Shown: one piece after another, positions 1 to 59,240 of the stretch | Layout: each line of letters opens with the position of its first letter | Position numbering within the stretch: the stretch's first letter is position 1 | Origin: an uncultured Acidobacteriota bacterium | GTDB lineage: Bacteria > Acidobacteriota > Blastocatellia > RBC074 | Reading direction: 5' to 3' | Length of the DNA stretch: 64,000 bases | Assembly: GCA_902825875.1 (NCBI GenBank) | Contig: CADECP010000005.1 | Span: 50,168 to 114,167 of the forward strand | The notes under the pieces: generated by a model | The model's database searches: none | What the model was told of the DNA's origin: nothing | Seen by the model: the letters and a program-made list of their open reading frames with translations, nothing else | Program-made: the position numbers and the translations under genes

Positions 1-491
1 CCGGACAAACCGGAAACGTAAGCAGGCAATTGATCCGCGAACGGCCCGCCGAGCAAATCGCAAACCCGCACGCCCAAAGCCTTGCCTTTAATGTCCCACA
101 ACGCGGTGTCAATTCCGGCAATCGCGTCCAGCATGAAAGAAGTCGTATGGCCGCGCACGCGCATTGCCGCGTACATCCGCGCCCACAATCGTTCGTGCGC
201 CATCGGGTCTTCGCCAATCAGAATCGGAGCCAGAATGGTTTCGATGATCGTCCGCACCACTTCGGGCGCGACAGGCGATTGCGATTCTCCCCAGCCGATC
301 GGCCCCGCGTCTGTTTCGATTTTGATGAGCGCGGTTTCGATCTTGGTCGAATACAGCGTTTGGTAATTCGTCGCCCAGCGGTAATCGTTCTGCGATTCCA
401 CCAGCGGCGCGGGCGAACCGGCGGTTCCGCGCGCGGCGTTTAAGTCTCTGGGAATTTTGATGGCGAAGGCTGAAATGCGCGTGATCTTCAT
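1..491 (-). CDS. Enolase-superfamily (mandelate racemase/muconate lactonizing enzyme family) sugar-acid dehydratase-like protein, N-terminal portion; gene runs off the window start
   Basis: Own minus-strand translation from ATG at 491-489: MKITRISAFAIKIPRDLNAARG...IKIETDAGPIGWGESQ...DAIAGIDTALWDIKGKALG (MR/MLE capping-domain pattern). ATG overlaps the stop of the MFS gene (ATGA). Absent from the ORF track because there is no stop inside the window. Confidence 0.7.
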   Translation of the reverse strand, partial: MKITRISAFAIKIPRDLNAARGTAGSPAPLVESQNDYRWATNYQTLYSTKIETALIKIETDAGPIGWGESQSPVAPEVVRTIIETILAPILIGEDPMAHERLWARMYAAMRVRGHTTSFMLDAIAGIDTALWDIKGKALGVRVCDLLGGPFADQLPAYVSGLS

Positions 492-1816
492 TGCGATTGC
501 TCCTGCAATTTCAATTCGACGGCGGCTTGCGAATCGCTTTTGACCAAGATTCGCACGCACAAATACGCCAGCGGATGCAGCACGCCCATCAACACCAGCA
601 GCGGCGTGTACGAATATTTATCAATCACCTGACCGGCAAAGGATTGAAACAGCGCGCCGCCTATGCCGCCGCCCATCGCCACAATGCCGTGAATGGTCGC
701 CACAATCGGGCGCGGAAAAATGTCCACAGTCAGCGTCACCAGATTGGTTTTCCACGCCGAATGCACTCCCAACACAAAGCTGATAATCGCCAACGCCACG
801 GGAATCGGTGGTCGCAAAACCAGCAACATCCCCAGCGGCATCATCAACGCGGTGACGATCATGACGGATTTGCGCGCGGCGACTGCGCCAATTTTTCTGG
901 CGATCAATCGCCCCGAATACCAACCGCCCGCCACTGAGCCGACATCGGCAATCAGATAAGGAATCCAAACCACGTAACTCATCCGCTGTTCCGTCATGCC
1001 TTCGCGTTCGGTCAGATACTTCGGCAGCCAGAACAGATAAAACCACCAGACCGGATCGGAGATGATGCGCGCCAGCAACAATCCCCAGGTTTGAGGCAAA
1101 CGGAAAAATGAAAGGAAAGCGGGACGGGGAGATTGAGGGACAGCGGGACTGAGGGAAGTTCGTTCCGTCTCTCCGTCTCCCCGTCTCTCCGTCTCTCCTT
1201 CCCGAATCAGCGCCAGTTCTTCAGCCGAAATGCGCGGATGTTTTTCCGGCAAGTGATAAAACCAGAACCACGCCGCCGCCCAAATCAAACCCAACGCGCC
1301 TGTGGAAACAAACGCCGATTGCCAGCCCCAACGGTCTGCCATCCACACGGCGATGAGCGGCGTGATAATCGCGCCTGTCACCGTTCCCGCCTGAACCCAA
1401 CCGTTGAGCGTGCCGCGATCTTTGGGTGGAAACCATTCCGCCGCCACTTTTTGCGCGCCGACGAAATTGGCTGATTCCGCCGCGCCAAGCAAAAACCGCA
1501 TGGCGCCGAAACCGAAAACAGAACCGACCGCCGCATGCAGCATCGCCGCGACTGACCACCAAACAGCCGCAACGCCGTAGATCAATTTCGTACCGTAACG
1601 ATCAATCAGCCAACCGGAGACGACGAACATGACTGTGTACGGAATCAGAAAAGCATTTGAGATCAGGCCGTAATCGCTGTTTGTCAGATGCAGTTCTTTG
1701 GTCAGACGCGGAGCCAGCGACGACAGCGTTTGGCGGTCAACGTAATTGATGACCGTGCCGAAAAAGACCAGCCCAGTGATCCACCAGCGCAAATTGGGAA
1801 TTGGCTTTTTCATCAT
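488..1816 (-). CDS. MFS transporter, hexuronate/sugar-acid (ExuT/DgoT-like anion:cation symporter) type
   Basis: ORF track 488..1846. Multi-TM with MFS signatures (GxLxDRxGxK: 'GWLIDRYGTK'). Start taken at the second Met pair (MMKKPIP) because that ATG overlaps the upstream stop as ATGA. Central cytoplasmic loop carries an unusual ETER/GDGETER insertion. Confidence 0.8.
   Translation of the reverse strand: MMKKPIPNLRWWITGLVFFGTVINYVDRQTLSSLAPRLTKELHLTNSDYGLISNAFLIPYTVMFVVSGWLIDRYGTKLIYGVAAVWWSVAAMLHAAVGSVFGFGAMRFLLGAAESANFVGAQKVAAEWFPPKDRGTLNGWVQAGTVTGAIITPLIAVWMADRWGWQSAFVSTGALGLIWAAAWFWFYHLPEKHPRISAEELALIREGETERRGDGETERTSLSPAVPQSPRPAFLSFFRLPQTWGLLLARIISDPVWWFYLFWLPKYLTEREGMTEQRMSYVVWIPYLIADVGSVAGGWYSGRLIARKIGAVAARKSVMIVTALMMPLGMLLVLRPPIPVALAIISFVLGVHSAWKTNLVTLTVDIFPRPIVATIHGIVAMGGGIGGALFQSFAGQVIDKYSYTPLLVLMGVLHPLAYLCVRILVKSDSQAAVELKLQEQSQ
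1121..1198. repeat. GA/TC-rich imperfect palindromic element lying in frame inside the MFS gene (encodes ...EGETERRGDGETERTSLSP...); related copy at 31557-31620
   Basis: Direct reading: 'gggactgagggaag...ccgtctctccgtctccccgtctctccgtctctcc'. Shares 'gactgaggga' and 'tctccgtctc' with the intergenic hairpin downstream of the PEGA gene. Confidence 0.5.
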
Positions 1817-3249
1817 TGGTAAATAAACGTCACCGTCGCGTTGCAATCCGCGTTTGCCGTCACACGTACCCAGTGGGCACTGAATCCGGCGGGAAATTCG
1901 TGGTGCTTGTATTCATTGTTGCCCAAGTGAACAACCTCGTAGCTTTCCCAGCTTCCATCGCCGAGAAAGTCCACTTCGATATTGAAGGCCACCGATTTCG
2001 GCGAGGCGTTTTTCAGATGCACGACTTTGCGATCAAAGCCCGTCATCAAAAACGGATCGGAGGGAACATTCGCTTTCACATCTTGTTTGTGCCACACGCT
2101 GCCCCAACCGGCAGGTTTGCCCATCTTCCACAGATCGTCTACTTGACCGAACCATAGGCCGGTTTGCGGCTGCCCCCACGAGTTGTCGGTTTGATCTCCG
2201 CCCAACACGAAGAGTCCGCGCCAATAACAAAAGTCAGGCACGATCCTCAAGTGATTGCTGATCGGGCGAATCGGCAGAATGCGTCCGTCATAAATTTGCG
2301 CGGGCAGTTCGTAAAAGATGCCGTGCAAATCCATCAGGAAGCGTTCCGTTTGCGCGTCGCGGATTCGCATCCATTCGGTGTTCCAGGCGTGATCGAAGGT
2401 TTGCGCGCCTTTCGGCAGACGGTAGGTCAGCCATTTGCCTTTGGCGAAAACTTTCAGAATCGCCGACGCCTGGTCCCAGCCTGTAGCAAAAATCGGATTG
2501 CCGTAAGTTTCCGCCGACCAGTGTTTGCCCGCGACTTCGACAAAAGGTTTGCGCTCCAGAATTGTCCAGGTTTTGCCGTTCCATTCGGCCAAACGACCGG
2601 AGGCGTCTTTGCCGAGATAGTCCGCTTCGTAATAAGAATTGTTGGCGACGACTACGCGTCCGTTGGCTGAAAACGCGGCTTTGAAATGGACGCGGCCTTT
2701 GATGTCGAGTTCTTTGACCAGATTGAAAAGCTGTTTGGCTTCGAGCGTCTTTACGTCCACTTCATAAAACTCGCCTTCCATCGCCAGCATATAGACTTTG
2801 TTTTTCGGATCGGTCAGGTGAGTCATCGTCGAAGTCAGCCGCACATTCTTGATCGCTTCGATGGTGCGCACGTTGCCTTTGACATCAATGGCGTGCGGGC
2901 CGAGAAACGCCTGATTTGACGGATTGTGAATGTAACGATTGGTGAACGTGCCGACGACCGAAGCCGGATGTTTGTGCATCTGCATCTTTTCGTCCAGCCA
3001 GAACAGCCCCGTGCCTTCGCCGCGAATGTGGGCGACATAAGCGACGAACCATAATTTGTCAGCCCAGGGCAACAACGCGCCGATGCCTGCTTCGCTGCGG
3101 TTTTCGTGTCCAGCGACGACGGCAAGACCGGGGAACGCGCCGCCAATTTGAATGGGTGGCGTTTCAATTTTCTTTTCCGGTTCTTGCGCGCGCGCCACAG
3201 TCACCAGCACGAACAGACAAAACATGAAATTTATGAGCCAATGTTTCAT
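1813..3249 (-). CDS. Secreted hypothetical protein (N-terminal signal peptide); possible polysaccharide-active enzyme in this sugar-acid locus
   Basis: 478-aa ORF with cleavable signal (MKHWLINFMFCLFVLVTVARAQEP). Stop overlaps the MFS start. No family recognised from sequence. Confidence 0.6.
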   Translation of the reverse strand: MKHWLINFMFCLFVLVTVARAQEPEKKIETPPIQIGGAFPGLAVVAGHENRSEAGIGALLPWADKLWFVAYVAHIRGEGTGLFWLDEKMQMHKHPASVVGTFTNRYIHNPSNQAFLGPHAIDVKGNVRTIEAIKNVRLTSTMTHLTDPKNKVYMLAMEGEFYEVDVKTLEAKQLFNLVKELDIKGRVHFKAAFSANGRVVVANNSYYEADYLGKDASGRLAEWNGKTWTILERKPFVEVAGKHWSAETYGNPIFATGWDQASAILKVFAKGKWLTYRLPKGAQTFDHAWNTEWMRIRDAQTERFLMDLHGIFYELPAQIYDGRILPIRPISNHLRIVPDFCYWRGLFVLGGDQTDNSWGQPQTGLWFGQVDDLWKMGKPAGWGSVWHKQDVKANVPSDPFLMTGFDRKVVHLKNASPKSVAFNIEVDFLGDGSWESYEVVHLGNNEYKHHEFPAGFSAHWVRVTANADCNATVTFIYQ

Positions 3250-3264
3250 AACAAGTCGTAAGCG

Positions 3265-4335
3265 TTATCCTGCTTTGAGTGGAATCTGCACGTTGAAGGA
3301 ATACTCGCGCGCTGCCGAAACATCCGCTGCGCACAGCAACACCGCCGGTTTGTCTTTTTCAAACCAAAGCTGCGGTCGCTCCAATGAATTCATTTTTTGC
3401 TTCGTGCCATTGGCCCATTTCACTTCCATCGTTGCCACCAACGGATGCCGTGACAATTTCCAGTCCAAGCCATCCGCCGATTCAAACAACGCGAGCGATT
3501 TGCCTGCGTTGGTGAAATAGCCTTCGTTGTCTTTGACGATGGCGCGATAGCGTTGACCGTCGTGCCAGATGAACGGGTCTTCAGCGGCAAAAGCTACGCC
3601 CTCTTTCACAAAGACCGGATTGGGATGTTTTTTGAAAGTGCCGGTCGGGCTGTCGCTGGTTGCCACGCAATGCAGCACGGGGCCGCCGAACGGCATTTTG
3701 TTTTTATCGCCGACCGCTTTGTAAACCATCAGGAACCCGCCGTCAGGTCGTTTGGTGACGCTCGGATTGGAACACATCAGCGCGTCATAAAATCCTGCCG
3801 TAGGTTCGATCAACGGTTTATCAAATCGCTGCCACGGCCCCAGCGGATGATCGGCGACGGCCACGCCGATGCGTTGATTGTTGCGATGCGTCCAGTTGAG
3901 CGACTTCATCGCCAGGCCATCGCCCGTGTTGCCCATGTAATACAGATAATACTTTTTCCCGAACCGCTGCACCGTTGGATTGTGCGTGCAAAGCCCGTCC
4001 CAGAGCTGCTTGCCACGCGCGGGCAACGCGACCGACTTGAAGGTGAACGGCCCCAGCGGACTCTTGCCAACCGCCACCGCAACTTCGGAATGCGTCACCC
4101 AGGCGTTGTGTCCCAACGCGCGCGGCCAGCGCGAAAACAGCAGGTAGTATTTGCCGTCGTCGCCTTTGGTCAGCGTGCCGCACCAGACGTAATAATCCGG
4201 CAACTCAAATTTCGCCGTCAGTGGCACAGGCTGAATCAACTTTTGAAAATTCAGGTTATCGGCATTATGTTGTGGCAATGCCAGCGCACTCGCCAAAATC
4301 TGTCCGATAAATTGTCGGCGCGTTGGATGGTTCAT
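3265..4335 (-). CDS. Tat-exported glycoside hydrolase, five-bladed beta-propeller type (GH43-like)
   Basis: Twin-arginine motif TRRQFIG followed by a hydrophobic stretch. Propeller-type motifs (YYLYYMG, ADHPLGPW, EDPFIWHDGQRY). 4-nt overlap with the upstream gene. Confidence 0.6.
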   Translation of the reverse strand: MNHPTRRQFIGQILASALALPQHNADNLNFQKLIQPVPLTAKFELPDYYVWCGTLTKGDDGKYYLLFSRWPRALGHNAWVTHSEVAVAVGKSPLGPFTFKSVALPARGKQLWDGLCTHNPTVQRFGKKYYLYYMGNTGDGLAMKSLNWTHRNNQRIGVAVADHPLGPWQRFDKPLIEPTAGFYDALMCSNPSVTKRPDGGFLMVYKAVGDKNKMPFGGPVLHCVATSDSPTGTFKKHPNPVFVKEGVAFAAEDPFIWHDGQRYRAIVKDNEGYFTNAGKSLALFESADGLDWKLSRHPLVATMEVKWANGTKQKMNSLERPQLWFEKDKPAVLLCAADVSAAREYSFNVQIPLKAG

Positions 4336-5639
4336 ACGATGACTTTCGCCAACTCCTTTTCATTAAACTCAACGCCGAGTCCCGGACGTTCGGGCACGCG
4401 CGCGCTGCCGGGTTTGAACTCCAGCGGCTCTTTCAGCAACACGTTGCCAAACGGCCCTTCGCTTTTGTTGCCGCCTTCGATGATGACGAAATTCGCTGTG
4501 GCTACTGCCAGATGCAGCGAAGCCGCCACATAAGGAGCAGTCCCCGTGCTGACATGCGGCGACCACAAAACGCCGTGCGCGTCGGCAAGCGTCGCAATGC
4601 GTTTGCATTCGGTGATGCCGCCCGCGCGGCAAACATCAGGGTTGATGATGTCGCAGGCTTTCGCGGCGAACAGGTCGCGGAACTGAAAACGATTCGACAA
4701 GCCTTCGCCCACGCAGACGGGCGTACTCAGCGCCGCCGCCAAACGCGGATAACCAGATGTGTCTTCGGGCATCAGCGCGTCTTCCCACCAACCGATGCCG
4801 GGCATTTGATCGAGTTCGCGTCCGAGTTGTTCGGCTTCGTGCAACTTGAACGCGCCGAGCGAATCCAGCAGCAATTGCCCGCGGCCTTTGACGGCTTGCG
4901 TGACGGCGGCCAGGCGATCCAGCCCGCGCGAATTTGCGCCTTTGCCGAGTTCGGTTTTCATCGCGGTGTAACCCGCTTCGACCGCGCGCACGGCTTTGTC
5001 TTTCAACTCTTCGGCAGACGCGCTGCTGATGCCGAGGTAGGTCGGAACCGTGTCGCGGTACTTGCCACCGAGCAGCACATACAACGGCTGTCCGGTGAAT
5101 TTGCCCAGGATGTCCCACAGCGCCAGATCAATGCCGGCGATGGCTTCGGTGAACGGCGCAGTGGCGTAACCGCGCAATCGTTCGCTGGAATACATCCGTT
5201 CCCACAGCACTTCGACGTTGCGCGCGTCTTGTCCAATCAACAGCGGCGCGAGCATGTCGCTGATGATCGTTTGATGAACGCGCGGCGCGGCAGGCGCGTG
5301 GCATTCGCCCCAACCGATCAAGCCTTGATCGGTTGTGACCTTGACGATCACCGCTTGCGTGTAGCCGTTGAAACGTGACGGACTCGCGTGATCCAACCGA
5401 TTCCACAAACCTACGCCGCCCGTGCGATTGCCGACCGGAGGCATGACGATCAACTCTTCGGGCGTTTTGTTGTCTTTGGGAGTGCGAATGACGAAGGGTT
5501 CGATCTTCGTGATTTTGAGCGGAGAGGTTCCGACGCGAGCGCGCTGCACGACGGACATTTGAGCGAAATTTGTCGTGGCGGCGACGACCAACGCGCCGCC
5601 GCTTTTGAGCCATTCACGTCGTTTCATGCGAAAAGGCAT
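4332..5639 (-). CDS. Enolase-superfamily enzyme (MR/MLE family) carrying an N-terminal Tat signal peptide
   Basis: KRREWLKSGGALVVAATTNFAQM = RRxFLK-like Tat motif plus h-region. Body has MR/MLE pattern (IGWGECHAP..., DLALWDILGK, metal-ligand region). Start could also be Met5 (5627). Confidence 0.75.
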   Translation of the reverse strand: MPFRMKRREWLKSGGALVVAATTNFAQMSVVQRARVGTSPLKITKIEPFVIRTPKDNKTPEELIVMPPVGNRTGGVGLWNRLDHASPSRFNGYTQAVIVKVTTDQGLIGWGECHAPAAPRVHQTIISDMLAPLLIGQDARNVEVLWERMYSSERLRGYATAPFTEAIAGIDLALWDILGKFTGQPLYVLLGGKYRDTVPTYLGISSASAEELKDKAVRAVEAGYTAMKTELGKGANSRGLDRLAAVTQAVKGRGQLLLDSLGAFKLHEAEQLGRELDQMPGIGWWEDALMPEDTSGYPRLAAALSTPVCVGEGLSNRFQFRDLFAAKACDIINPDVCRAGGITECKRIATLADAHGVLWSPHVSTGTAPYVAASLHLAVATANFVIIEGGNKSEGPFGNVLLKEPLEFKPGSARVPERPGLGVEFNEKELAKVIV

Positions 5640-5641
5640 AT

Positions 5642-5700
5642 AGTCCCAGCTTCAGCCGTAATGCTTCGATAATAAAGGCATTCCGGCTGAAGCTGGGACT
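5642..5700 (-). terminator. Perfect 17-bp inverted repeat hairpin between the TonB-receptor gene stop and the Tat-enolase start (terminator/attenuator-like)
   Basis: agtcccagcttcagccg ... cggctgaagctgggact. Loop itself contains aatgc/gcatt. Lies 6 nt after the receptor stop codon. Confidence 0.4.
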
Positions 5701-5706
5701 ACGAAC

Positions 5707-8700
5707 TTAGAAAATCAGCTTCAAGCCCAACTGCATCAAACGCGGATCGCGCGAACCGGTGATGCGTCCGAAAGCGTCGTTGTTATTCGTGCCGCCCGGC
5801 CCGGCACCGAACGAACCGTTCGGCGTGCCCAGGTTGACGTGATTCGGCGCGTTGAAGGCTTCGGCGCGGAATTGCAGCTTCAGCCGTTCGGTAATGGTGA
5901 AGTTCTTGAACACCGACAGGTCAATGATGATCGCGCCCGGATTGCGGAATTGGCTGATGGCGCGCGGCGTGTTGCCGAACACGTACAAAGCCGGATTCAC
6001 GAAGGCCGCCGGGTTGAACCATTGCACGCCGCGGTTTGGATTGGCATCGGTGAAACCGCTGGGCAATTCCAGACTGCCGATCCAGTCGGGACGATTTGCC
6101 AAACCGTTGTTCGCGCCGCGCACCGAAGTCGGCGTCCCGGCCACAATCGTCGTGATCGTGTTCAATTGCCAACCGCCAAGAACGTTGTTGGCCACTCCGT
6201 TTTTGAAATCGAAGCGTTTGCCCGCGCCGAAAGGCAGTTCGACCAAACCGCTGACCACCAAACGATGCGGCACGTTCGACGGGTCTTCCGAACGTTCGGC
6301 GCGACGATTGTACAAACCGTTCTGATAGCCGAAATCGTTGCCGCCTTCCGAACCTATGAAGTTCAATCCGTTGAAGATCGAATCGCTGATGAGTTTGGCG
6401 AAGGTGTATGAAGCCAGCACCGTGAAGCCTTTGGAAAAACGTTTTTCCGCCGACACCAGCATTGAGTGATAAATCGAATTGCCCGCGTGCGGCGCTTGGA
6501 CGGTGATGCCGCCGACATAAGGCAGCGGACGCAGCGCCTGAGCCTGTGTGATGGTCGCTCCGCCGAATGGGCCTGGGACTTTGCCCGCGAACGGATTCGG
6601 CACGTTGTTGGTCAGGCGTCCCGCCAAACCGAATTCACGAATCTTCGCCGGATCGGCTTGATTCAAATCGTAACTGCCGGACAGCAAGTGAGTGCCGTGA
6701 TTGGCCGAATAAGCGACTTCGACCAGAAAGCCTCCGCCGAGTTGTTGTTGCAAGGACAGATTCCATTGCTGCGACATCGGCGTGCGCGAAATTTGCTCTT
6801 TGAACGACGCGCTGGACGTGGCAAAAAAGTTCGGCCCTAAACGCGCGCCCAAGGGTTGATTCGGCGCGAAGGGAAAACCGTCCTTGAATTGAAATGCCGT
6901 CAGCAGGTTGTTGCCGTTCGGCGCAGGGTAAGCCGTCGTCGTTCCGGCAAAACCGTTCGTGCTTTCGTAATTGGCGTTCCAATAAGAAAACAGCGCCGAC
7001 ATAAAGATGCCGTAACCGCCGCGAACAACCGTTTGCTGATTGCCGCGCACATCCCACGAAAAACCCACGCGCGGCGCGAAGTCGTTTTTGTCGTCTTCGG
7101 AAAAGGTTCGCCCGTAATCAATGCAGGCGTATTGCGTCAAGCCTGGCAGACTGTTGGTCGGGTTCGTAGCGAAAGGATTGAACCTCGAAGTGCCGCAACG
7201 CCGTTCGTAAGGCTGTTGCTGGTAATCGTAACGCAATCCCAAACTCAGACTCAGGCGGCGGCGAATCTTCCATTCATCGTTGACGTAAAAACCGTAAGAC
7301 TTGCCGACTTCGGATTCGCCCAGATGCGTCGTCACGCTGGCGCTGCCGACCGCGCCGAGCAAAAACGTGGCGAATTGATTGCCGGTGTTGATGCGGTTGC
7401 CGGCGATGGGCGCGGCGTTGTCGGTCAAGGTTGTCGGGAATTGGAAATCGCCGGACGGCGAGCTTTTTTGCAGGTTGTTGGCCTGTGTCAGTCGCAACTC
7501 CGTGCCGAATTTGACTGTGTGATTGCCTTTCAACCAGGTCAGCGAATCAAACAATTGCCAGACCGAGCCGCCGCGTTTGCCCACAGTGCCGGTGTTGAAT
7601 CCGGGCAAACCGTTGTTCGGACGCGGCAACACATCCGGCGGAACGATTGACGGCAAACCCAATTGCGACGGCAGGTTCTGATCGGCGCTCGCCACCTTGA
7701 ATTCAAAAATCTGCCGCGCCACGCCGATGCGGAATTCGTGAATCAGGTTCGGCGTGAAGTTGTGAATGTCGCTCAGCACGACGTTGTGTCCGCGAAACGG
7801 GTCGGTGCGTTGGCGCACAATCGGATCGGGATAAAGATTCGCCGTGCCGTTGTCGGTGAACTGTTTGTAAAAGGTGTAGCGCGCCGTGAAGTTGTTCTTT
7901 TCAGAAAAGCGATGATCCACGCGCGAAGTGTGATTGGTCAGCGTGCGTTTGTTGCTGACCGCGCCGAAGAAATTGTTCAGATTGGTGAAGGCGTTGTCCG
8001 CCGTGCGGTTGGGCAGCGGATAAAACCGCAGGAAGTTTTTCGAGACCGCATCAATCCGATTGGCCGGAATGATGTTGCCGGGAAACGGGTCGCGCAGAAA
8101 GCCTTGCCCGTTCGGATTCGGGCGAGTGGTCGCCGGATCGTAAATGATGATCGGTTTGCCTGTGGCGTCGGCCAGCTTGGAAAAATCGCCGTTGCGGAAA
8201 GCTTCGGTCGGCAAGGTGTAAAAGCCCGAAGCGTTGGTTACAAACTGATAGCCTTCATAGTTGTAAAAGAAAAAGCTCTTGTCGCGTCCGTCGTAACCCA
8301 GCGGCCCGAAGACTTTGCCGGGCAAACGGATCGGCCCGCCAATCGAACCGCCGTATTGGTTGTAACGCAGCGGCTGTTTCGGACGCCGCGCGCGATTGTT
8401 GGCCCAAGAATTGGCGTCGAGCGAATTGTTGCGGAAAAACTCGTAAACCGTGCCGTGATAAGCGTTCGTGCCGGCTTTGGTCACCAGGTTCACCACGCCG
8501 CCGAGCGTGAAACCGTATTCCGCCGACATGGTGTTGGTCTGGACTTTGAATTCCTGCACCGAATCCACGTTCGGATTGATGTTTGCGTCCGGCAGATAAG
8601 CATTGACGCTGCTCAAACCGTCCACAACCAGATTGTTGGTGGCGAACGGCGAGCCGTTGATGCGAATGAACGAGACCTGCGTGCCGCGATCCGCAAAGCC

Positions 8701-9252
8701 CGAAGCCGTCGGGCCAACGCCGGATTGAACGGCAGGCGCGAGCAGCACCAGCGACAGCGCGTTGCGCCCATTGACCGGCAATTCTGCGACGCGGCGGCTT
8801 TCAATCACTTTGCCAAACGTCGCCGTCGTGGTGTCCACGAGCGGAGCCTGGCTGGTGACTTCGACTGTTTCCGTCACCGCGCCGGTTTCCAACACCAGAT
8901 TGATTTCGGCGCGCTGATCTACTTCCAGCGTGATGCCGCTGCGAAGCGCCTTCTTGAAACCGGTTTTGGTCGCCGCGACGGTGTAACCGCCGACGTTCAA
9001 GTTCGGCACTACATACCCGCCGCTTTCGTTGGTGACGACAGTCGTGCCGGCGTTGGTTGCCGGATTTGTAATCATGACGGTTGCACCGGGAACCACCGCT
9101 CCGGTGGAATCGGTCACAGTGCCAAGAATGGTTCCGCGCCCGCGTTGAGCGAATGCGGTCAGTGATGACAGCGCCAACAGCGCCAGAATTGACAAAGTCA
9201 CGGTCGCAATTTTTACTGCGGTCAGTGACCTTTGGATAACAAGGTGATTCAT
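5707..9252 (-). CDS. TonB-dependent receptor with N-terminal carboxypeptidase-regulatory-like domain, plug and 22-strand barrel
   Basis: ORF 5707..9312. Start set at MNHLVIQRSL, which has GGAGG 7 nt upstream, and a signal peptide ending AFAQ. 'TVTDSTGAVVPGATV' CarbopepD_reg-like. C-terminal ...LKLIF (terminal aromatic). Confidence 0.85.
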   Translation of the reverse strand: MNHLVIQRSLTAVKIATVTLSILALLALSSLTAFAQRGRGTILGTVTDSTGAVVPGATVMITNPATNAGTTVVTNESGGYVVPNLNVGGYTVAATKTGFKKALRSGITLEVDQRAEINLVLETGAVTETVEVTSQAPLVDTTTATFGKVIESRRVAELPVNGRNALSLVLLAPAVQSGVGPTASGFADRGTQVSFIRINGSPFATNNLVVDGLSSVNAYLPDANINPNVDSVQEFKVQTNTMSAEYGFTLGGVVNLVTKAGTNAYHGTVYEFFRNNSLDANSWANNRARRPKQPLRYNQYGGSIGGPIRLPGKVFGPLGYDGRDKSFFFYNYEGYQFVTNASGFYTLPTEAFRNGDFSKLADATGKPIIIYDPATTRPNPNGQGFLRDPFPGNIIPANRIDAVSKNFLRFYPLPNRTADNAFTNLNNFFGAVSNKRTLTNHTSRVDHRFSEKNNFTARYTFYKQFTDNGTANLYPDPIVRQRTDPFRGHNVVLSDIHNFTPNLIHEFRIGVARQIFEFKVASADQNLPSQLGLPSIVPPDVLPRPNNGLPGFNTGTVGKRGGSVWQLFDSLTWLKGNHTVKFGTELRLTQANNLQKSSPSGDFQFPTTLTDNAAPIAGNRINTGNQFATFLLGAVGSASVTTHLGESEVGKSYGFYVNDEWKIRRRLSLSLGLRYDYQQQPYERRCGTSRFNPFATNPTNSLPGLTQYACIDYGRTFSEDDKNDFAPRVGFSWDVRGNQQTVVRGGYGIFMSALFSYWNANYESTNGFAGTTTAYPAPNGNNLLTAFQFKDGFPFAPNQPLGARLGPNFFATSSASFKEQISRTPMSQQWNLSLQQQLGGGFLVEVAYSANHGTHLLSGSYDLNQADPAKIREFGLAGRLTNNVPNPFAGKVPGPFGGATITQAQALRPLPYVGGITVQAPHAGNSIYHSMLVSAEKRFSKGFTVLASYTFAKLISDSIFNGLNFIGSEGGNDFGYQNGLYNRRAERSEDPSNVPHRLVVSGLVELPFGAGKRFDFKNGVANNVLGGWQLNTITTIVAGTPTSVRGANNGLANRPDWIGSLELPSGFTDANPNRGVQWFNPAAFVNPALYVFGNTPRAISQFRNPGAIIIDLSVFKNFTITERLKLQFRAEAFNAPNHVNLGTPNGSFGAGPGGTNNNDAFGRITGSRDPRLMQLGLKLIF

Positions 9253-9372
9253 CTTGAGCCTCCAATGGAAACAAGACAGCGTGTCGGTTTCAGTCGGACT
9301 GTCACTCGCCAAAGTCGTCTGTCCGCTGAAACCGCCCGCTGCTGATAGCTGCGTGTTGATAAATGTGATTGC

Positions 9373-10071
9373 TTAATCCTGTTTGACGGATCGTTCGACA
9401 TCTTCCAGCAAAGAAAAGCCGCCGCGTTTGATATGTTCGCCGATGGCGCGCGACACGCCTTCGGCGTCTTTCTGTTCCAGAGCGCGCAAAATGGCGCGAT
9501 GCTCTTTCTGCTCCTGTGCGATGCGCTCCAGCCAGGTTTCCGACCGATAATGAATGCCCGCCACCTGAATCGGCACGCGCAAGCGGTGATAGGTTTCTGC
9601 CAGTTTTCGATTGTCCGACAATTCCACGATCAGGCTGTGAAATTGAAAATTCAGTTCCAGGTGATGCGCGACCTCTGTGGACTTTTCCATTTCGGCAATC
9701 AGAGCACGCAATTTTTCGATGTCCGATTTTTTGACATGGGCTGCGGCCAGTTCACCGGCCAGCATTTCCAGCGCGCGACGCACTTCAAAAGTTTCAGCCA
9801 GTTCGCGCGGGTCCACGCGGCTGACAAATGTGCCGCGTTGCGCCTGAACATCCAACAAACCTTCCGTCGCCAATCGGCCAATGGCTTCCTTGACCGGCAT
9901 TTTCGACACCTTCAACCGCTCGACCAATTCGCCCAAATCCAGCCTGTCGCCCGGAGCAAACCTCCCTGTCAAAATTTCCGACCGCAAATAATCGTAAATC
10001 TGATCGCTCAGCGTGGCGCGATTGATAATGAAATCGTTTGCCGCACTCGTTGAAATCGCCGTTGAAGCCAT
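9373..10071 (-). CDS. GntR-family transcriptional regulator (FadR-like, FCD C-terminal domain)
   Basis: wHTH region (DQIYDYLRSEILTGRFAPGDRLDLGELVERLKVSKMPVKEAIGRLATEGLL) plus alpha-helical FCD-like C-terminus. Start chosen at MASTAIS, which has AAGGAGG about 8 nt upstream. Divergent from the cupin gene. Confidence 0.85.
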   Translation of the reverse strand: MASTAISTSAANDFIINRATLSDQIYDYLRSEILTGRFAPGDRLDLGELVERLKVSKMPVKEAIGRLATEGLLDVQAQRGTFVSRVDPRELAETFEVRRALEMLAGELAAAHVKKSDIEKLRALIAEMEKSTEVAHHLELNFQFHSLIVELSDNRKLAETYHRLRVPIQVAGIHYRSETWLERIAQEQKEHRAILRALEQKDAEGVSRAIGEHIKRGGFSLLEDVERSVKQD

Positions 10072-10129: not shown

Positions 10130-10161
10130 ATCACAGCAGCTAATATATTAGTCACTGTGAT
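10130..10161. promoter_or_regulatory. Palindrome ATCACAG-N18-CTGTGAT in AT-rich divergent promoter region (candidate GntR operator)
   Basis: Seen directly, about 60 nt upstream of the GntR start. FadR/GntR-type regulators commonly bind short GT...AC palindromes. Confidence 0.25.
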
Positions 10162-10453
10162 GCTAAGTTTCTAAGGAAAAATTGTCAACCGCCGCTTCTA
10201 CACTCAATGGCCAGCCATCGTAACTATTCAGTCCGCTCAGCCACGCAAACCGACTTTTGACACCCCGACAAACGACATGCTACAACGCCGCATCAACGCA
10301 CTGATTTCGCAGCATTTTCCGAATAATTATTGACGTTTGACCGTTTCGGCCCCATCCCGAAAGTAAAAAAACTGCGGTTGGAAATTAACCATCTGACGCT
10401 CGTTCCTTGTCGCTCTCCGAACGTCAACCAACACAAGAAAGGTGAGTACATTC

Positions 10454-10978
10454 ATGAAAGCAACCGGCGCTGCGCCTGCTCGTCAGCAGGAAGAGACAAA
10501 AATCGAACAACTGATTCGCACAGTTCACCTGACCGTTCAGCCAATGACGGCTGAAACTTTTTCACCTTACGGCGAAATCGTCACAGAGCGCGGAAGCATC
10601 AAGCTGGATTTTGACGGCGGGCAGGCCAGCGTAGCGGCTCAGACCGTCGAAGCGCGCCCGATGACGTTTGATTTCCTGGGTCGCCATTTGCGGTCGGAGC
10701 AATTTTTCGCGCCGTTGGGCGGGACGAAATCCGTGATTGCCGTCGCGGCTCCGTCCGAAAACGGAACCGCCATGCCGGATGTCAACAAACTGGCGGCGTT
10801 TTTGGTGGATGGTTCCTGCGCGTTCAAATTGCATCGCGGAACCTGGCACATCAGCGCGTTTCCATTGGCAGAAAACGCCACGTTTCTGGTGCTGGATCGA
10901 GAAAACACTTTGGAAGAAGATTACGATTTGCGCGATTTGAAAACTTCGCTCGGCGTCGTTGTCGAAATTCACAGATAA
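10454..10978 (+). CDS. Ureidoglycolate-lyase-family cupin protein (AllA-like)
   Basis: Recalled AllA-like alignment: ETFSPYGEIV / HLRSEQFFAPLGG / FKLHRGTWHISAFPL / TFLVLDR. ATG at 10454 preceded by AAAGGTGAG. Confidence 0.65.
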   Translation: MKATGAAPARQQEETKIEQLIRTVHLTVQPMTAETFSPYGEIVTERGSIKLDFDGGQASVAAQTVEARPMTFDFLGRHLRSEQFFAPLGGTKSVIAVAAPSENGTAMPDVNKLAAFLVDGSCAFKLHRGTWHISAFPLAENATFLVLDRENTLEEDYDLRDLKTSLGVVVEIHR

Positions 10979-10996
10979 CTCAAACCAAAACAAATC

Positions 10997-11434
10997 ATGA
11001 AGAACACCACGTTTATTGTCCGAAGTGCGCTGGTCGCGGCGCTTTTTTCAGTTGTTGCCGGAATGACGGCTTGCAGCAAAAGCAGTGTAGTTTCTGATTC
11101 GCCAGCGACGACGCAAGCCCCTGCTGCTCAACCGCAAACGGCGACACAATCGCAACCAGCGGCTCAATCGGCGGAACAGGCTCCCGCCGCTGAACAAGCT
11201 GGCGCAACGCAACCGCAACAACCGACGCCTTCGCCAACTCTGCATCCGATCATGAAACAGGCGCAATCCAAACCTGGCGTGCCGGTTTCAGTTCCCGATT
11301 CGATGCGTCGCCCGCTGAACGCCGAAGAAATGAAAAAAGCGATGGAAGCGATGCCGCCTGAAGTCCGCGCACGGCTTCAGGGAATGGCCGCCGCTCCGCA
11401 AGGCGCTAAACCGCAGGCAACGCCTAAACAATAA
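10997..11434 (+). CDS. Lipoprotein with Q/A/P-rich low-complexity region
   Basis: Signal plus lipobox-like AGMTAC, followed by ATTQAPAAQPQTATQSQPAAQ repeats. Confidence 0.55.
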   Translation: MKNTTFIVRSALVAALFSVVAGMTACSKSSVVSDSPATTQAPAAQPQTATQSQPAAQSAEQAPAAEQAGATQPQQPTPSPTLHPIMKQAQSKPGVPVSVPDSMRRPLNAEEMKKAMEAMPPEVRARLQGMAAAPQGAKPQATPKQ

Positions 11435-11441
11435 TTTCGTC

Positions 11442-11660
11442 ATGTCCAAGCCGTCTGAACAGGGAAAGTTCGCGCTGGCTTATTCGATGGGGTTGTCGTT
11501 TGCGTTCAACGTCATCGGCGGAATCGTCGTCGGAATTTTGGTGGATCGTTGGTTGACCACCACGCCCTGGGCGTTGCTGGCCGGAATCCTGCTGGGAGTT
11601 TTCAGCGGACTGGCCAGCATTTACCGCATCACCAACCGGCTGAACCGCACCGACGAATAA
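11442..11660 (+). CDS. AtpZ/AtpI-like small membrane protein (orphan, not next to an atp operon)
   Basis: 72 aa, two TM helices, pattern AYSMGLSFAFNVIGGIVVGILVDRWLTTTPW typical of the ATPase_gene1 family as recalled. Confidence 0.5.
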   Translation: MSKPSEQGKFALAYSMGLSFAFNVIGGIVVGILVDRWLTTTPWALLAGILLGVFSGLASIYRITNRLNRTDE

Positions 11661-11691
11661 CTGTCTGACGGACACAGCCCGGAACACAGTT

Positions 11692-14600
11692 ATGCACCGA
11701 ATCTCACTTGTCCTCTTCTTCGCTTTTCTCGCTTTCCCGCTCGCTTCGATCGTTACTGAATCTACTCAAGCGCAATCGGCTCAACCAATCAATGTCGTGA
11801 ACGGCTACCCGCAATTTCAACTTCACGGCCAGCCTTTTTTTGCCCACAGCACTGCGTTCTTTTACAACCGCATCCCGCGTGACGAATGGGCAAGCTCGCT
11901 GGTCAAGTTGAAAGAAATGGGCATCAACACGGTTGACCTTTACATCGCCTGGAATTGGCACGAACCCGAAGAAGGCAAGCTGGATTTTGACGGACGCTCG
12001 AATCCTCGCCGAGACGTGAAAGCTTTGATGCAGATGGCGACAGAAATGGGATTTGCCGTCATCGTTCGCCCCGGCCCGGTGATTCTGAACGAATGGAAAA
12101 ACGGCGGTTATCCCGATTGGTTGCTGGCTCGACCTGAATTCCAAATGAACGAAGTCGCTCGGCGAGACGGACATTACCCGCCGCTTTCGGGCGTCAGCGC
12201 CTCCAATTCCGAAGAAGCCAGCAAGCAGTGGATGGCCAACGAAACTCATATGCGATACACGCGGCGCTGGTTCGCCGATGTCATGCGCGAAGTTCTGAAA
12301 GGCAAACAAGCAACCGAAGGCGGCAACGTCATAGCCATTCAGCTTGACGACGATCAAGCCATCAACCGCGCAAATTACAACGGCCCTGTGTTTTGGAAAT
12401 ACATGAATTCGCTCGCCGCTTTCCTGCGTGAAGCCGGAGCGACCGTTCCCGTTTACATCAACCCAACAGACATGCGAGTTTCCGCCGCTGGCGCTCCGCA
12501 TCAAATCGGCGCAATGGGTCAGTGGTATTTCAATTTCGGAACCGATGCCGCGCTGCGTTGGGAAGACACTGCGACCTTGCAGTTTTACACCGAGACGCTG
12601 AAGACCCAGCCGCACTTCCCGCCTATGGTCATCGAGTATCAGGCCGGTTGGTACGGCAACGGCGAAGACAGTTACGCCAAAACCGCTGACCCGACAAACA
12701 CTTTGCTGTCTTCGCGCGTGATGATCGGACACGGGCTGCACGGGCTGAATTACTTCCCTGTTCAAGACACGCTGTACCCCGCTGGTTGGGAAGTTCCTTG
12801 GACGAATCATTACTACACTTGGGAATCGGCGTTGAACCTGGCGCGCGAAGAACGTCCGCGAGCCGCCGCCGTGCATCGCAACGGCAGATTGATTTCGGGA
12901 CTTGGCCACGAACTCGCCGCCGCGCACAAAGCCGCCGACCTGGGCTTGGTTTATCCCATAAGCTCCTTCGATCAACCTAAACTGACGCGCGAAGACATTT
13001 TGCGAATCTCCCGCGCGCAAATGCAGATTCAACAGTTCTGCCAACTCAATCAAATCTCAGTCGAATATCTCGATTTGGAATTTCAGCCGCTAGAATTGCT
13101 GAAACGCCACAAAGCGATTCTGCTGCCAACTTTCGACGACGAAGCCTTGAAGAAAACCGCAGCAACCGGTCGAGAGGAAATTACCGCCGCAAATGAGGAC
13201 AAGCGCGGAAACGCGGCGACGGGGAGACGCGGCGAGAGGAAGCTTGAGTTGTCAGTTGAAGCTCAGCGAAAGTTGGTTGAGTTTGTGAAGGGCGGCGGGC
13301 TGTTGGTTTGTACGCCTGCTTTGCCAACTGGCGAAGCGTTGAACGAATTGAAAACCGAGCCGTTGGCTTCGCGTGTGATCGTGGTTCCCGATTTCTGGCG
13401 AACGATTCCGACCGAGCCGGGCAAAACGAAACGCGAAGAATTGCTGGCCAGCGTGCAATCGGCGACTGTCGAATTCGTCAGCCGTTTGTCGCGGCTGGGC
13501 GTCAATCGCCGAGTCAAAGCTCGCGTGTTGAAAGCGGGCGAACGAACCATCGCGGCGGCTTCGGTTGGAGCCAGCGTTGAACCGGATTTGGTGGCGACTC
13601 AGTTGATTCCCGACGATGGCAAGCAGACTTTCGGCTTTGTCAGTCTGGCGAACTTCGACGACAAACACACTATGCGCGTCACGTTGAACGTAGCCGATCC
13701 GGCGTCAACTGGACGGCTGGAATTGCCAGAATTCAGTTTGCGAGCGCGCGATGCGTTGATGCTGCCGCTGCGATTGCCACTGGGTTCAAATGGCGAAGAA
13801 CTCGTTTATGCCACCGCTGAATTGTTAAGCCATGAAATATCGAACGGTAAAATCCAGCTACGATTTTATTCACCTGACAGGGCGGACATTGCACTGAAAC
13901 TGCCGCACAAACTTCAAGGTGGAGTAACGATTAATGGCCTCCCAGCAGTTTGGGCAACTGATGAAGCTGGCCACCTCACCATTAAGTTAGCCCCGCCGAT
14001 TCGACGAGCCAACGCCGACGACGAAGACGAATTGGCCGGACGCCGCCAGCACGAACTGGATGTTGAAGTTATCTACGAACGCGGATTGCCGGAACTGGCT
14101 GTCAAAACGGCGAAGCTCATCATCGGCGAAACGAATCAGGTGGCGGTTGAAATCTCGAATCGCACGGCTGCCGCAGCCGTGCGTGGAAAGCTGATACTCA
14201 GCGTTGATCGCCTGTTTCGCCACGAACAATTCACGCTGGACGTTGACCTGCCGCCGCAAGCAACTCGCGTCTTCAACTTCGCCGTGCCGCTCAGCAAACA
14301 AGCCGTCGCCGACGATCAAGTCACTCTACAAGCGACACTGACGACCAACACTCGGCAATTCAATTCGCCAACCGCGACCGCCGAAATCCTGCCGCGCTTT
14401 TCATGGCAAGTCTTTCCGAAAACGGCCATCCCGCTCAGAGCCGACACCGCGCTGACCATCAATCCGCCGCTGCTTTTGCCAACCGACGCTGGAGCGACTT
14501 CGGCGCAATTCAGTTTGCGCGTCGGCAACAACACCTCGCAGCCAATCACGCTGAAACGTGAATCGTTATTCCTGAACGCCTTGCCGCTGAAACTCGCCCC

Positions 14601-15513: not shown

Positions 15514-15577
15514 AAAAAGCCATGCCCATCGTGTAGCTTATTGCCCGTTCCCTGACAGAAAATAAAAGAGGTACTAA

Positions 15578-56871: not shown

Positions 56872-56940
56872 GCGCGTTTGTAGTTCCGCCTTTAGGCGGC
56901 TGAAGTTACGCAGCCGCCTAAAGGCGGAACTACAAACGCG
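56872..56940. repeat. Perfect about 30-bp-stem palindrome (gcgtttgtagttccgcctttaggcggctg / loop aagttacg / reverse complement); each arm also self-palindromic
   Basis: Seen directly. Lies 2 nt after the crotonase stop and 22 nt before the MBL start. No T-run. Confidence 0.55.
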
Positions 56941-59151: not shown

Positions 59152-59240
59152 ACCCGGTACAGAACCGGGAGCGGTAGCGACTGGGTGATTTCGTGAAGCA
59201 CTCACCTAGTCGCTACTGCTCCCGGTTCCATACCAGTAAC
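59152..59240. repeat. REP-like palindromic element (gaaccgggagcggtagcgactgggtga / tcacctagtcgctactgctcccggttc) between hisS and aspS
   Basis: 27-nt arms with 2 mismatches, loop tttcgtgaagcac. Core also found inside the ADH gene (33961-33985). Confidence 0.6.

Follow-up and report, generated by a model that had tools for sequence, protein, structure and literature searches.

A predicted Tat-exported enolase-superfamily enzyme in a putative acid-sugar uptake operon of uncultured Acidobacteriota

In this work, we have analysed 64,000 nucleotides (nt) of DNA from an uncultured Acidobacteriota bacterium (contig CADECP010000005.1, positions 50,168 to 114,167; the whole stretch is referred to here as the window), and in particular an acid-sugar locus at its left end in which one gene codes for an MR/MLE enzyme of the enolase superfamily with a predicted twin-arginine translocation (Tat) signal. 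Open reading frame (ORF) and Pfam analyses of the window place all the genes of the locus on the minus strand. In the direction of transcription they code for a GntR/FCD-family regulator, a TonB-dependent outer-membrane receptor, the Tat-signalled enzyme, an exported glycoside hydrolase, a secreted protein of 478 amino acids (aa), a transporter of the major facilitator superfamily (MFS) and a second MR/MLE paralogue; every gene that a preliminary description of this DNA had listed was found. The Tat-signalled enzyme is encoded by the ORF at 4332–5639 (435 aa, or 431 aa from its probable start at 5627), and it matches Pfam MR_MLE_C (1.3e-54) and MR_MLE_N (1.5e-20), both over the gathering cutoffs, as a member of the MR subgroup. 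The preliminary description had read this ORF as an enolase-superfamily enzyme with a twin-arginine signal, and the elements on which it relied, KRREWLK, a hydrophobic h-region and an A-x-A-like site, are all in the sequence.

The signal peptide corresponds to positions 5562–5639 of the minus strand, as judged from the sequence and the family motif, and reads (MPFR)MKRREWLKSGGALVVAATTNFA before a Q. The N-terminus of the enzyme is MPFRMKRREWLKSGGALVVAATTNFA up to the predicted end of the signal and QMSVVQRARVGTSPLKITKIEPF after it, and the signal itself consists of MKRREWLK, the h-region SGGALVVAATTNFA and the A-x-A-like end NFA-Q (the hyphen before Q marks the predicted cleavage point here and below). 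The same A-Q ending recurs in the Sec signals of the receptor and of the 478-aa protein. We applied a simple rule, RR followed by at least 11 uncharged residues, to the 120 best homologues (57–91% identity) and to 78 genomic orthologues, which were read straight from genomic DNA with the frame extended upstream. The rule is satisfied by 108 of the 120 homologues and by 73 of the 78 orthologues; two more orthologues have the RR pair with a shorter h-region, and the remaining three are near-identical sequences without the signal. The conservation of the signal in orthologues, on which the earlier claim of export hung, is thus high (108/120; 73–75 of 78). The family motif can be written [S/T]-R-R-x-F-L, the canonical pattern: among the 108 homologues, which were selected for RR and so keep it in all cases, S or T precedes the pair in 38, position +2 is F or L in 85 and position +3 is L or F in 95. 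Both Arg residues are also invariant in an alignment of 34 sequences, in which the remainder of the signal varies.

The signal belongs to this enzyme and not to its relatives next door, since none of the 45 cytosolic paralogues examined in the same loci carries an RR signal (0/45). The full-length copy of the paralogue, present in L009 (a 98%-identical relative), is 388 aa long and 36% identical to the Tat-signalled enzyme. Since its Met1 falls opposite residue 41 in the alignment, the 40 extra residues amount to the signal and a linker and nothing else. The neighbouring exported families, the hydrolase and the 478-aa protein, have mostly Sec-like signals (82/118 and 82/120, respectively), and Tat use therefore appears to be a property of the MR/MLE enzyme and not a habit of the lineage. 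Four other proteins encoded in these clusters have an RR signal of the same kind, namely the hydrolase, a Gfo/Idh/MocA oxidoreductase, a DUF1501 protein and a FAD oxidoreductase. Regarding the start codon, the ATG of the MPFR position is missing in L009, where the protein begins with MKRR, and this favours the ATG at 5627 (MKRR...) as the probable real start of the enzyme; the RR pair is retained with either start. More distant relatives have GAGGAA or GGAGGG ahead of the MKRR start, and the in-frame Met28 that lies downstream of RR in the window is not conserved. No better start was found downstream of the RR motif; such a start would have overturned the export claim. That the MR/MLE enzyme truly bears a Tat signal, and that it does so in a receptor/transporter acid-sugar locus, is in our view well supported by these sequence comparisons.

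What kind of enzyme is it? Its best solved relatives are 4GGB/4HPN, the cycloisomerase AtGCI (9.6e-55, 37.2% identity), and 5OLC, the cycloisomerase DauB (1e-47, 36.5% identity). In these enzymes the catalytic residues are D194/E220/E246 as metal ligands, K166 as the base, H296 as the acid, and D87 and W298 in the pocket (PMC5698469). We placed the AtGCI residues on an alignment of 121 family sequences. The metal ligands D259/E286/E312 (AtGCI D194/E220/E246), the dyad D335/H362 (AtGCI D269/H296) and K228 (AtGCI K164, the first Lys of the K-x-K motif) are invariant, and the Tat-signalled enzyme is, to judge from them, a catalytically intact Mg2+-dependent member of the MR subgroup. The second position of K-x-K, AtGCI K166, is E230 in the window and G in 100, S in 18 and E in 3 of the 121 sequences, so that the K-x-K motif is lost. 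The pocket residues D87 and W298 of AtGCI are L155 and T365 in the window and are not kept in the family either. The first metal ligand is followed by an invariant D-S-L-G in the family versus D-A-N-H in AtGCI, and residues 66–90 form a conserved 25-residue insertion of the capping domain (the lid), MPPVGxxTGGxGLWNRLDHASPSRF, which AtGCI and DauB lack.

Because the catalytic Lys166 is missing, the enzyme does not appear to be a cycloisomerase of the AtGCI/DauB type, and the lactone chemistry of the AtGCI kind that the preliminary description had invoked is disfavoured by the replacement of this general base. The name galactarolactone cycloisomerase, which the JGI annotation gives to many members of the family (other database names are generic), was accordingly rejected: Lys166, Asp87 and Trp298 are not kept. 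We also set aside galactonate, mannonate or arabinonate dehydratase, for which every NCBIfam score lies far under the cutoff, and racemase/epimerase, for which the second base is missing. Since His-Asp would be the single base, a dehydratase or another beta-eliminase seems more likely than a racemase, and we give this reaction type about an even chance.

The enzymes of this kind form what looks like one tight and distinct clade. In a HMMER scan of 1.84 billion representatives at 50% identity, one full-length family representative was found (54% identity, with Tat signal and DSLG), after which the scores drop from 538 to 303 bits, and the relatives further down (at most 42% identity) start MKI..VE and have no signal. 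Among the full-length representatives in the top 150, the sole other convincing RR-signalled MR/MLE protein is P0375 (401 aa, 37% identity), which starts MMEVRRKFIKKAGLLG and whose Tat signal is MMEVRRKFIKKAGLLGMGSS; the enolase superfamily may thus have acquired Tat export on more than one occasion. A pattern scan with one genome per species gave 162 genomes with a relative, and the best 80 of the 162 (57–98% identity) were analysed. The carriers among these 80 are all metagenome-assembled genomes (MAGs), mostly of Bryobacterales/Bryobacteraceae and Blastocatellia, together with a few Latescibacterota, Calditrichota, Opitutales and Gemmatimonadota bins.

The surroundings of the gene are conserved as well. 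Neighbours were counted in the 80 loci by tblastn searches with reference proteins, and clustering the ORFs all against all, done independently, agrees with the counts, which are lower bounds because several loci lie on short contigs. A TonB-dependent receptor is present in 57 of the 80 loci, the MFS transporter in 55 (in 43 of them adjacent to the gene of the Tat-signalled enzyme and on the same strand), a gene of the DHDPS family in 49, the cytosolic MR/MLE paralogue in 47 and the GntR/FCD regulator in 42. The accessory genes are more restricted: a Tat-signalled Gfo/Idh/MocA protein is found in 11/80 loci and a Tat-signalled FAD enzyme also in 11/80, and in Blastocatellia loci, including the window, the propeller hydrolase occurs in five and the 478-aa protein in three. 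In Bryobacterales, 27–29 loci have a run of receptor, (NHL propeller), PSCyt2/PSD1, DUF1501 and FGE-sulfatase-like genes directly before the gene of the Tat-signalled enzyme. The trio within this run consists of PSCyt2/PSD1, DUF1501 (sulfatase-like, with an RR signal) and the FGE-sulfatase-like gene, the last of which often overlaps the start codon of the Tat-signalled enzyme; it was seen in L019, L027, L028, L031, L032, L038, L045–L047 and L051–L085 (about 27 loci), and its presence is a hint that the substrate may be sulfated or carry some other ester.

The DHDPS-family protein, studied in the L006 copy, is closest to L-2-keto-3-deoxyarabonate (L-KDA) dehydratase (7C0C/3FKK, 2.3e-42), clearly ahead of DapA and the YagE aldolase, and lies under all NCBIfam cutoffs. 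The closest structures to the cytosolic MR/MLE enzyme are 2PPG/4H1Z and 2NQL, enolase-superfamily proteins of Sinorhizobium and Agrobacterium whose PDB names carry no specific function, and it has the same single-Lys layout, with K-x-F and D-A-L.

Returning to the window, the operon would begin to the right of the regulator gene. A consensus scan found a sigma-70-like promoter, TTGACA-17 nt-TAGCAT, at 10160–10188 of the minus strand (10 of 12 matches; a consensus match only, since such promoter-like sites are not more frequent in the region than in shuffled sequence). Right after its -10 box lies a 32-nt palindrome, ATCACAGTGACTAATATATTAGCTGCTGTGAT (10130–10161, an inverted repeat), a candidate operator for autoregulation by the GntR/FCD protein, and a ribosome-binding site, AAGGAGG, stands between the palindrome and the gntR ATG at 10071. 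The regulator gene, the first of the operon (9373–10071, minus strand; Pfam GntR 1.7e-21, FCD 6.6e-24), codes for 232 aa according to the gene call in L001, an identical 10.3-kb contig from a public run whose gene calls match the window. It had been described as divergent; it is instead co-directional with the genes that it precedes, and the truly divergent neighbour is a ureidoglycolate-lyase-like cupin gene at 10442–10978 of the plus strand. This cupin opens a divergent unit (10442–18133, plus strand) that also encodes a Pro/Ala/Gln-rich secreted protein of 145 aa, a GH35-like beta-galactosidase of 1273 aa and a second TonB-dependent receptor; this content suggests a galactose-containing glycan as the wider target.

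The receptor gene occupies 5707–9252 of the minus strand (its ORF extends to 9312), with GGAGG preceding the ATG at 9252, and its product combines OMP_b-brl_4 (Pfam, 1.8e-223) and CarboxypepD_reg (1.6e-19) with a Sec-type signal ending ...LTAFA-QRG. Beyond the Tat-signalled enzyme, whose stop is overlapped by the hydrolase start at 4335, come the gene of the hydrolase (3265–4335), a five-bladed beta-propeller protein of the GH43/GH117-like kind (GH, glycoside hydrolase; RR signal MNHPTRRQFIG; partial match to Pfam GH43, 1.9e-13), and that of the 478-aa protein (1813–3249; Sec-type signal ...VARA-QE; an ORF with no Pfam match), both on the minus strand. The MFS transporter (488–1816, minus strand; Pfam MFS_1 4.9e-58) is of the anion:cation symporter (ACS) type; its best NCBIfam match is TIGR00893, the D-galactonate transporter subfamily, at 249.7 bits, under the 395-bit cutoff, and its relatives are galactonate, hexuronate and glucarate transporters. 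A 19-nt inverted repeat at 1123–1185, inside this gene, lies where the central loop of the transporter has 10 additional residues (GETERRGDGETER); it is present in the window and in L009 and absent in more distant orthologues. The MFS stop overlaps, as ATGA, the start of the second MR/MLE paralogue, whose translated 5' part lies at 1–491 (minus strand) and starts MKITRISAF without a signal, as expected for a cytosolic protein; the window edge truncates this gene. The locus had been confined to positions 1–10071, a frame that proved too narrow at both ends: the putative promoter and operator lie at 10130–10188, and in L009 the operon runs past the left edge of the window. There, the cytosolic MR/MLE gene is followed by a DHDPS-family gene and then by the genes of an ApbE protein, a 354-aa protein and a Gfo/Idh/MocA protein. 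The last three occupy 17455–20569 of L009 and encode an ApbE flavin-transferase-like protein, a secreted 354-aa protein without a Pfam match and a Tat-signalled oxidoreductase starting MITRRTFLE.

Structural models add some detail on the two other exported proteins. The AlphaFold model of the hydrolase (pLDDT 92) has GH117 anhydro-galactosidases as its top 18 Foldseek matches (TM 0.60–0.64, 15–19% identity), followed at similar TM by GH137, GH159 and GH43, and its best PDB sequence matches are also GH117 chains (4.6e-12, in the blade repeats only). A firm GH117 assignment was rejected on account of the 15–19% identity and of TM values like those of other propeller families, and the protein is left as GH43/GH117-like; the model is compatible with the idea that it may represent an undescribed glycoside hydrolase family. 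Some of its relatives (P0398, P0405, P0407 and others) are fused to GH16 (PF00722) or SGNH-lipase (PF13472) domains. The 478-aa protein gave no sequence match in Pfam, NCBIfam or the PDB. Its family has more than 3700 matches (57–87% identity), all unnamed or 'hypothetical', spanning Acidobacteriota, Cytophagales, Planctomycetota and Omnitrophota, and the AlphaFold model (pLDDT 72), a beta-propeller with a C-terminal beta-sandwich, has only generic propeller matches.

Between the receptor gene and that of the Tat-signalled enzyme, an inverted repeat at 5641–5701 is predicted by folding to form an intercistronic RNA hairpin on the minus strand. It had been reported at 5642–5700 and is real: the arms, 5641–5664 and 5678–5701, are 24 nt long with one mismatch (96% complementary), and the 131-nt region folds at -58.5 kcal/mol (z = -7.6 versus shuffles). 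In the alignment of three sequences (window, L009 and L010), 4 of 23 pairs show compensatory double changes, and 88% of the cells are paired versus 22–44% when the partners are slid by 1–3 columns, which is modest evidence, consistent with structural selection on the hairpin. Unrelated hairpins occupy the same gap between receptor and enzyme in four other relatives (L006, L012 and L016 among them), with T-runs after those of L012 and L016. The window hairpin has no clear U-tract (its tail is UAUAUGCCUUUUCGC) and the terminator scan did not call the site, so that a canonical intrinsic terminator was rejected in spite of the stem; a dispersed repeat of the repetitive extragenic palindrome kind was rejected as well, the arm being single copy in the 64-kb window. 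The best reading, and a plausible one, would be that the hairpin terminates transcription in part or stabilises the 3' end, so that receptor mRNA exceeds that of the downstream genes, broadly in line with the attenuation of read-through that the preliminary description had suggested. Two more long hairpins lie elsewhere in the window, at 56873–56940 and 59156–59234, one with perfect 30-nt arms and one with 33-nt arms at 88% complementarity, and long stem-loops may thus be a habit of this genome.

We propose that the operon serves the uptake of an acidic sugar that is processed on the way. Its expression would be repressed by the GntR/FCD protein at the palindrome until the sugar acid is present, and the hairpin would uncouple the level of receptor mRNA from that of the downstream genes. 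The receptor would take an acidic carbohydrate, or a glycan yielding one, across the outer membrane, and periplasmic accessory enzymes would release or oxidise the substrate, these being the hydrolase and the oxidoreductase here and the PSCyt2/PSD1-DUF1501-FGE-like proteins in Bryobacterales. The Tat-signalled enzyme would fold in the cytoplasm and then reach the periplasm by the Tat pathway, a choice of route that may be related to oligomer assembly and Mg2+ loading before it arrives there. AtGCI and DauB are octamers (PMC5698469), and for this reason Tat export would suit an oligomer-assembling enzyme. In the periplasm it would hold the carboxylate of its substrate through Mg2+ (D259/E286/E312), the His362-Asp335 dyad would take the alpha-proton and a beta-substituent would be expelled, by dehydration or another beta-elimination, and the product anion, probably a 2-keto-3-deoxy acid, would be imported by the adjacent MFS symporter. 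The preliminary description had an oligosaccharide processed at this step; the substrate could be a monomer instead. Sugar acid that had entered unprocessed would be dehydrated by the cytosolic MR/MLE paralogue, and the DHDPS-family enzyme would convert the keto-deoxy acid onward, our best guess being a Weimberg-type route to alpha-ketoglutarate semialdehyde. In soil Acidobacteria an acidic sugar would then probably be processed in the periplasm first and imported afterwards.

How far can this proposal be trusted? The data show the domain identity, the intact catalytic core, the conserved Tat-type signal and gene neighbourhood and the covariation in the hairpin; export itself, reaction, substrate, operator and hairpin function are inferred from them. 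That the enzyme is exported and acts in acid-sugar metabolism we hold with good confidence; the whole picture, an exported MR/MLE eliminase in an acid-sugar uptake operon, we favour only slightly. Several observations weigh against it. Orthologues in L081, L086 and L087 and a second copy in L079 have no signal, and the Pfam TAT_signal model, which is too insensitive to be decisive, does not match the window peptide and scores two homologues below its threshold (19.1 and 13.9 bits; cutoff 22.7). None of the NCBIfam equivalogs matches above its cutoff (the best is galactonate dehydratase, NF010624, with 214.8 bits versus 311), and for this reason the reaction and the substrate are guesses. Since the accessory genes vary by lineage, the natural substrate may also differ between lineages, and there is no obvious reason for a cell to keep one dehydratase in the periplasm and another in the cytoplasm. 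Finally, there is no cultured carrier among the 80 genomes and the ten clusters looked up, all of which are MAGs or metagenome contigs.

Some of these points invite other explanations. If the RR stretch were no Tat signal, the enzyme could be cytoplasmic with an N-terminal extension, or exported by Sec, or its start could be set wrongly; the failure of the Pfam model, the in-frame Met28 and the few orthologues without the motif would fit such a view. Against it, the invariant RR, the F/L-L at +2/+3, the uncharged h-region and the A-x-A-Q-like end are kept over 57–98% identity while the extension drifts, Met28 is not conserved, and ribosome-binding sites precede the MKRR start in relatives. Moreover, the extension is exactly what the cytosolic paralogue lacks, and four other proteins of the clusters have the same kind of RR signal. 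We consider this explanation very unlikely. The second MR/MLE dehydratase, the cytosolic one, could be accounted for if the Tat-signalled enzyme were a periplasmic 2-epimerase or racemase turning the incoming stereoisomer of a sugar acid into the one that suits the MFS transporter and the cytosolic dehydratase, and some MR-subgroup enzymes are able to perform 1,1-proton transfer (mandelate racemase, and GlucD and TalrD/GalrD through epimerase side activities). Two-base racemisation in this subgroup, however, needs the second K-x-K Lys opposite the dyad, a position (230) that is G, S or E in the family, and the cytosolic paralogue is also single-base (K-x-F, D-A-L), so that an epimerase seems very unlikely to us.

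A periplasmic aldarolactone cycloisomerase of the AtGCI type has more in its favour, and we regard it as unlikely. Here the oxidoreductase would make a galactaro- or glucaro-lactone from a uronate, the Tat-signalled enzyme would convert it to 5-keto-4-deoxy-glucarate, the MFS protein would import this product and the DHDPS-family protein would be KdgD. AtGCI is the best solved match of the enzyme (9.6e-55, 37% identity), the JGI label of many family members says so, the L009 operon encodes a Tat-signalled Gfo/Idh/MocA protein, the DHDPS-like protein also matches KdgD models (8e-30, under the cutoff), and the oxidative uronate pathway runs in this order of steps (PMC6353982). The active site argues otherwise: in place of Lys166, the predicted base of AtGCI and DauB, the window enzyme has Glu and the family has Gly, Ser or Glu; Asp87 and Trp298, shared by both cycloisomerases, are Leu155 and Thr365; D-x-N-H has become D-S-L-G; and the 25-residue lid insertion is in neither AtGCI nor DauB. 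In addition, the DHDPS-like protein is nearer to L-KDA dehydratase than to KdgD, and the Gfo/Idh/MocA gene is in only 11 of the 80 loci. Quite unlikely, in our opinion, is a further possibility, that the Tat-signalled enzyme is an enolase-superfamily lyase acting on carbohydrate chains and not on free monomers. The Tat-signalled Gfo/Idh/MocA or FAD enzyme would then oxidise, in the periplasm, the reducing end of an oligosaccharide taken in by the receptor to an aldonate, or the chain would carry an O-substituted acid sugar, for instance a sulfate ester; removal of the alpha-proton would expel the 3-O-linked remainder of the chain, giving a 2-keto-3-deoxy acid for the MFS transporter and a new reducing end, and with repetition of these steps 1,3-linked glycans would undergo a kind of enzymatic 'oxidative peeling'. 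Such a lyase would explain why the enzyme would be periplasmic and the receptor obligatory, why periplasmic redox and sulfatase-like partners recur, and why the family has its lid insertion and needs a separate cytosolic dehydratase for free sugar acid.

At least 80 species-level genomes, and possibly 162, mostly of Acidobacteriota, carry a member of the clade. Its conserved Tat signal, its own active-site layout and its stable association with an outer-membrane receptor and an acid-sugar importer point to a periplasmic reaction that has not yet been described. The clade gives a concrete protein for expression and screening, a way into the uptake of acidic carbohydrates by soil Acidobacteria, which are abundant but uncultured, and a case in which to ask why oligomeric enzymes that depend on Mg2+ would be sent through Tat; should the chain-cleaving possibility be true, glycan degradation would gain a new enzyme class. 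Prediction of enzyme function from sequence has one of its textbook cases in the enolase superfamily, whose characterised MR/MLE members, to our knowledge, all work in the cytoplasm. A full-text literature search, which leaves most subscription journals outside its coverage, returned no account of an MR/MLE enzyme that is periplasmic or has a Tat signal; in PMC5507952 the terms for Tat and the enolase superfamily co-occur in reference-list entries only.

Comparison with known systems shows which parts of the locus are familiar. AtGCI, which acts in a cytoplasmic pathway, shares with the Tat-signalled enzyme the fold, the subgroup, the three metal ligands and the His with its Asp partner, and its pathway also ends at a DHDPS-family dehydratase; it differs in that the solved chain begins directly at the catalytic domain, in having D-A-N-H and Lys166/Asp87/Trp298, and in lacking the lid insertion. 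DauB forms a 2-keto-3-deoxy acid by a beta-elimination in which an intramolecular ether is opened, and it is encoded with glycoside hydrolases and sulfatases in a TonB-dependent receptor regulon (PMC5698469). The glycoside-hydrolase context is similar, and the window hydrolase is nearest in fold to the GH117 anhydro-galactosidases; in contrast, DauB has no apparent export signal (its aligned part begins within the catalytic domain), carries the K-x-K and D-S-N-H motifs and belongs to a marine carrageenan system, whereas the carriers here, by the titles of their records, are mostly soil and freshwater Acidobacteriota MAGs. The MR-subgroup acid-sugar dehydratases give NCBIfam matches to the enzyme (galactonate dehydratase 2e-63, ManD 1e-51, archaeal arabinonate dehydratase 1.6e-51), all of them far under the cutoffs. 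Several of these dehydratases are single-base, and the His-Asp dyad with the lost second Lys suggests the same here. The galactonate, arabinonate, rhamnonate and mannonate dehydratases lack the lid insertion, and as far as we know the acid-sugar dehydratases of the subgroup are all cytoplasmic.

The cytosolic half of the proposed pathway, with a sugar-acid dehydratase, a DHDPS-family dehydratase, an MFS transporter and a GntR regulator, resembles the Weimberg-type pentonate routes, as in the Azospirillum L-arabinose and Pseudomonas aeruginosa L-lyxonate layouts. Those pathways differ in having neither a periplasmic MR/MLE step nor a TonB-dependent receptor, and no aldehyde dehydrogenase for the last Weimberg step was found among the conserved neighbours by ORF clustering over the 80 loci. 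The glucose-fructose oxidoreductase of Zymomonas, a Gfo/Idh/MocA protein that is Tat-exported with tightly bound NADP, is a precedent for a normally cytoplasmic family that gains an RR signal and becomes periplasmic after folding in the cytoplasm, and a Tat-signalled Gfo/Idh/MocA protein is encoded in the L009 operon itself; the Zymomonas enzyme differs in belonging to another superfamily and in having another reason for Tat. The preliminary description had called the locus similar to a polysaccharide utilization locus (PUL). This holds in so far as a regulator, a TonB-dependent receptor, an exported glycoside hydrolase and an inner-membrane transporter are encoded together, as in the SusC/SusD PULs of Bacteroidota, and it fails in that the Pfam scans of the operon proteins show no SusD-like family, the receptor is of the Acidobacteria type (CarboxypepD_reg plus OMP_b-brl_4) and the regulator is GntR/FCD. 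What appears to be new with respect to all these systems is a familiar fold and a familiar chemistry that would operate in a new compartment, with an active-site layout of its own and within a conserved operon.

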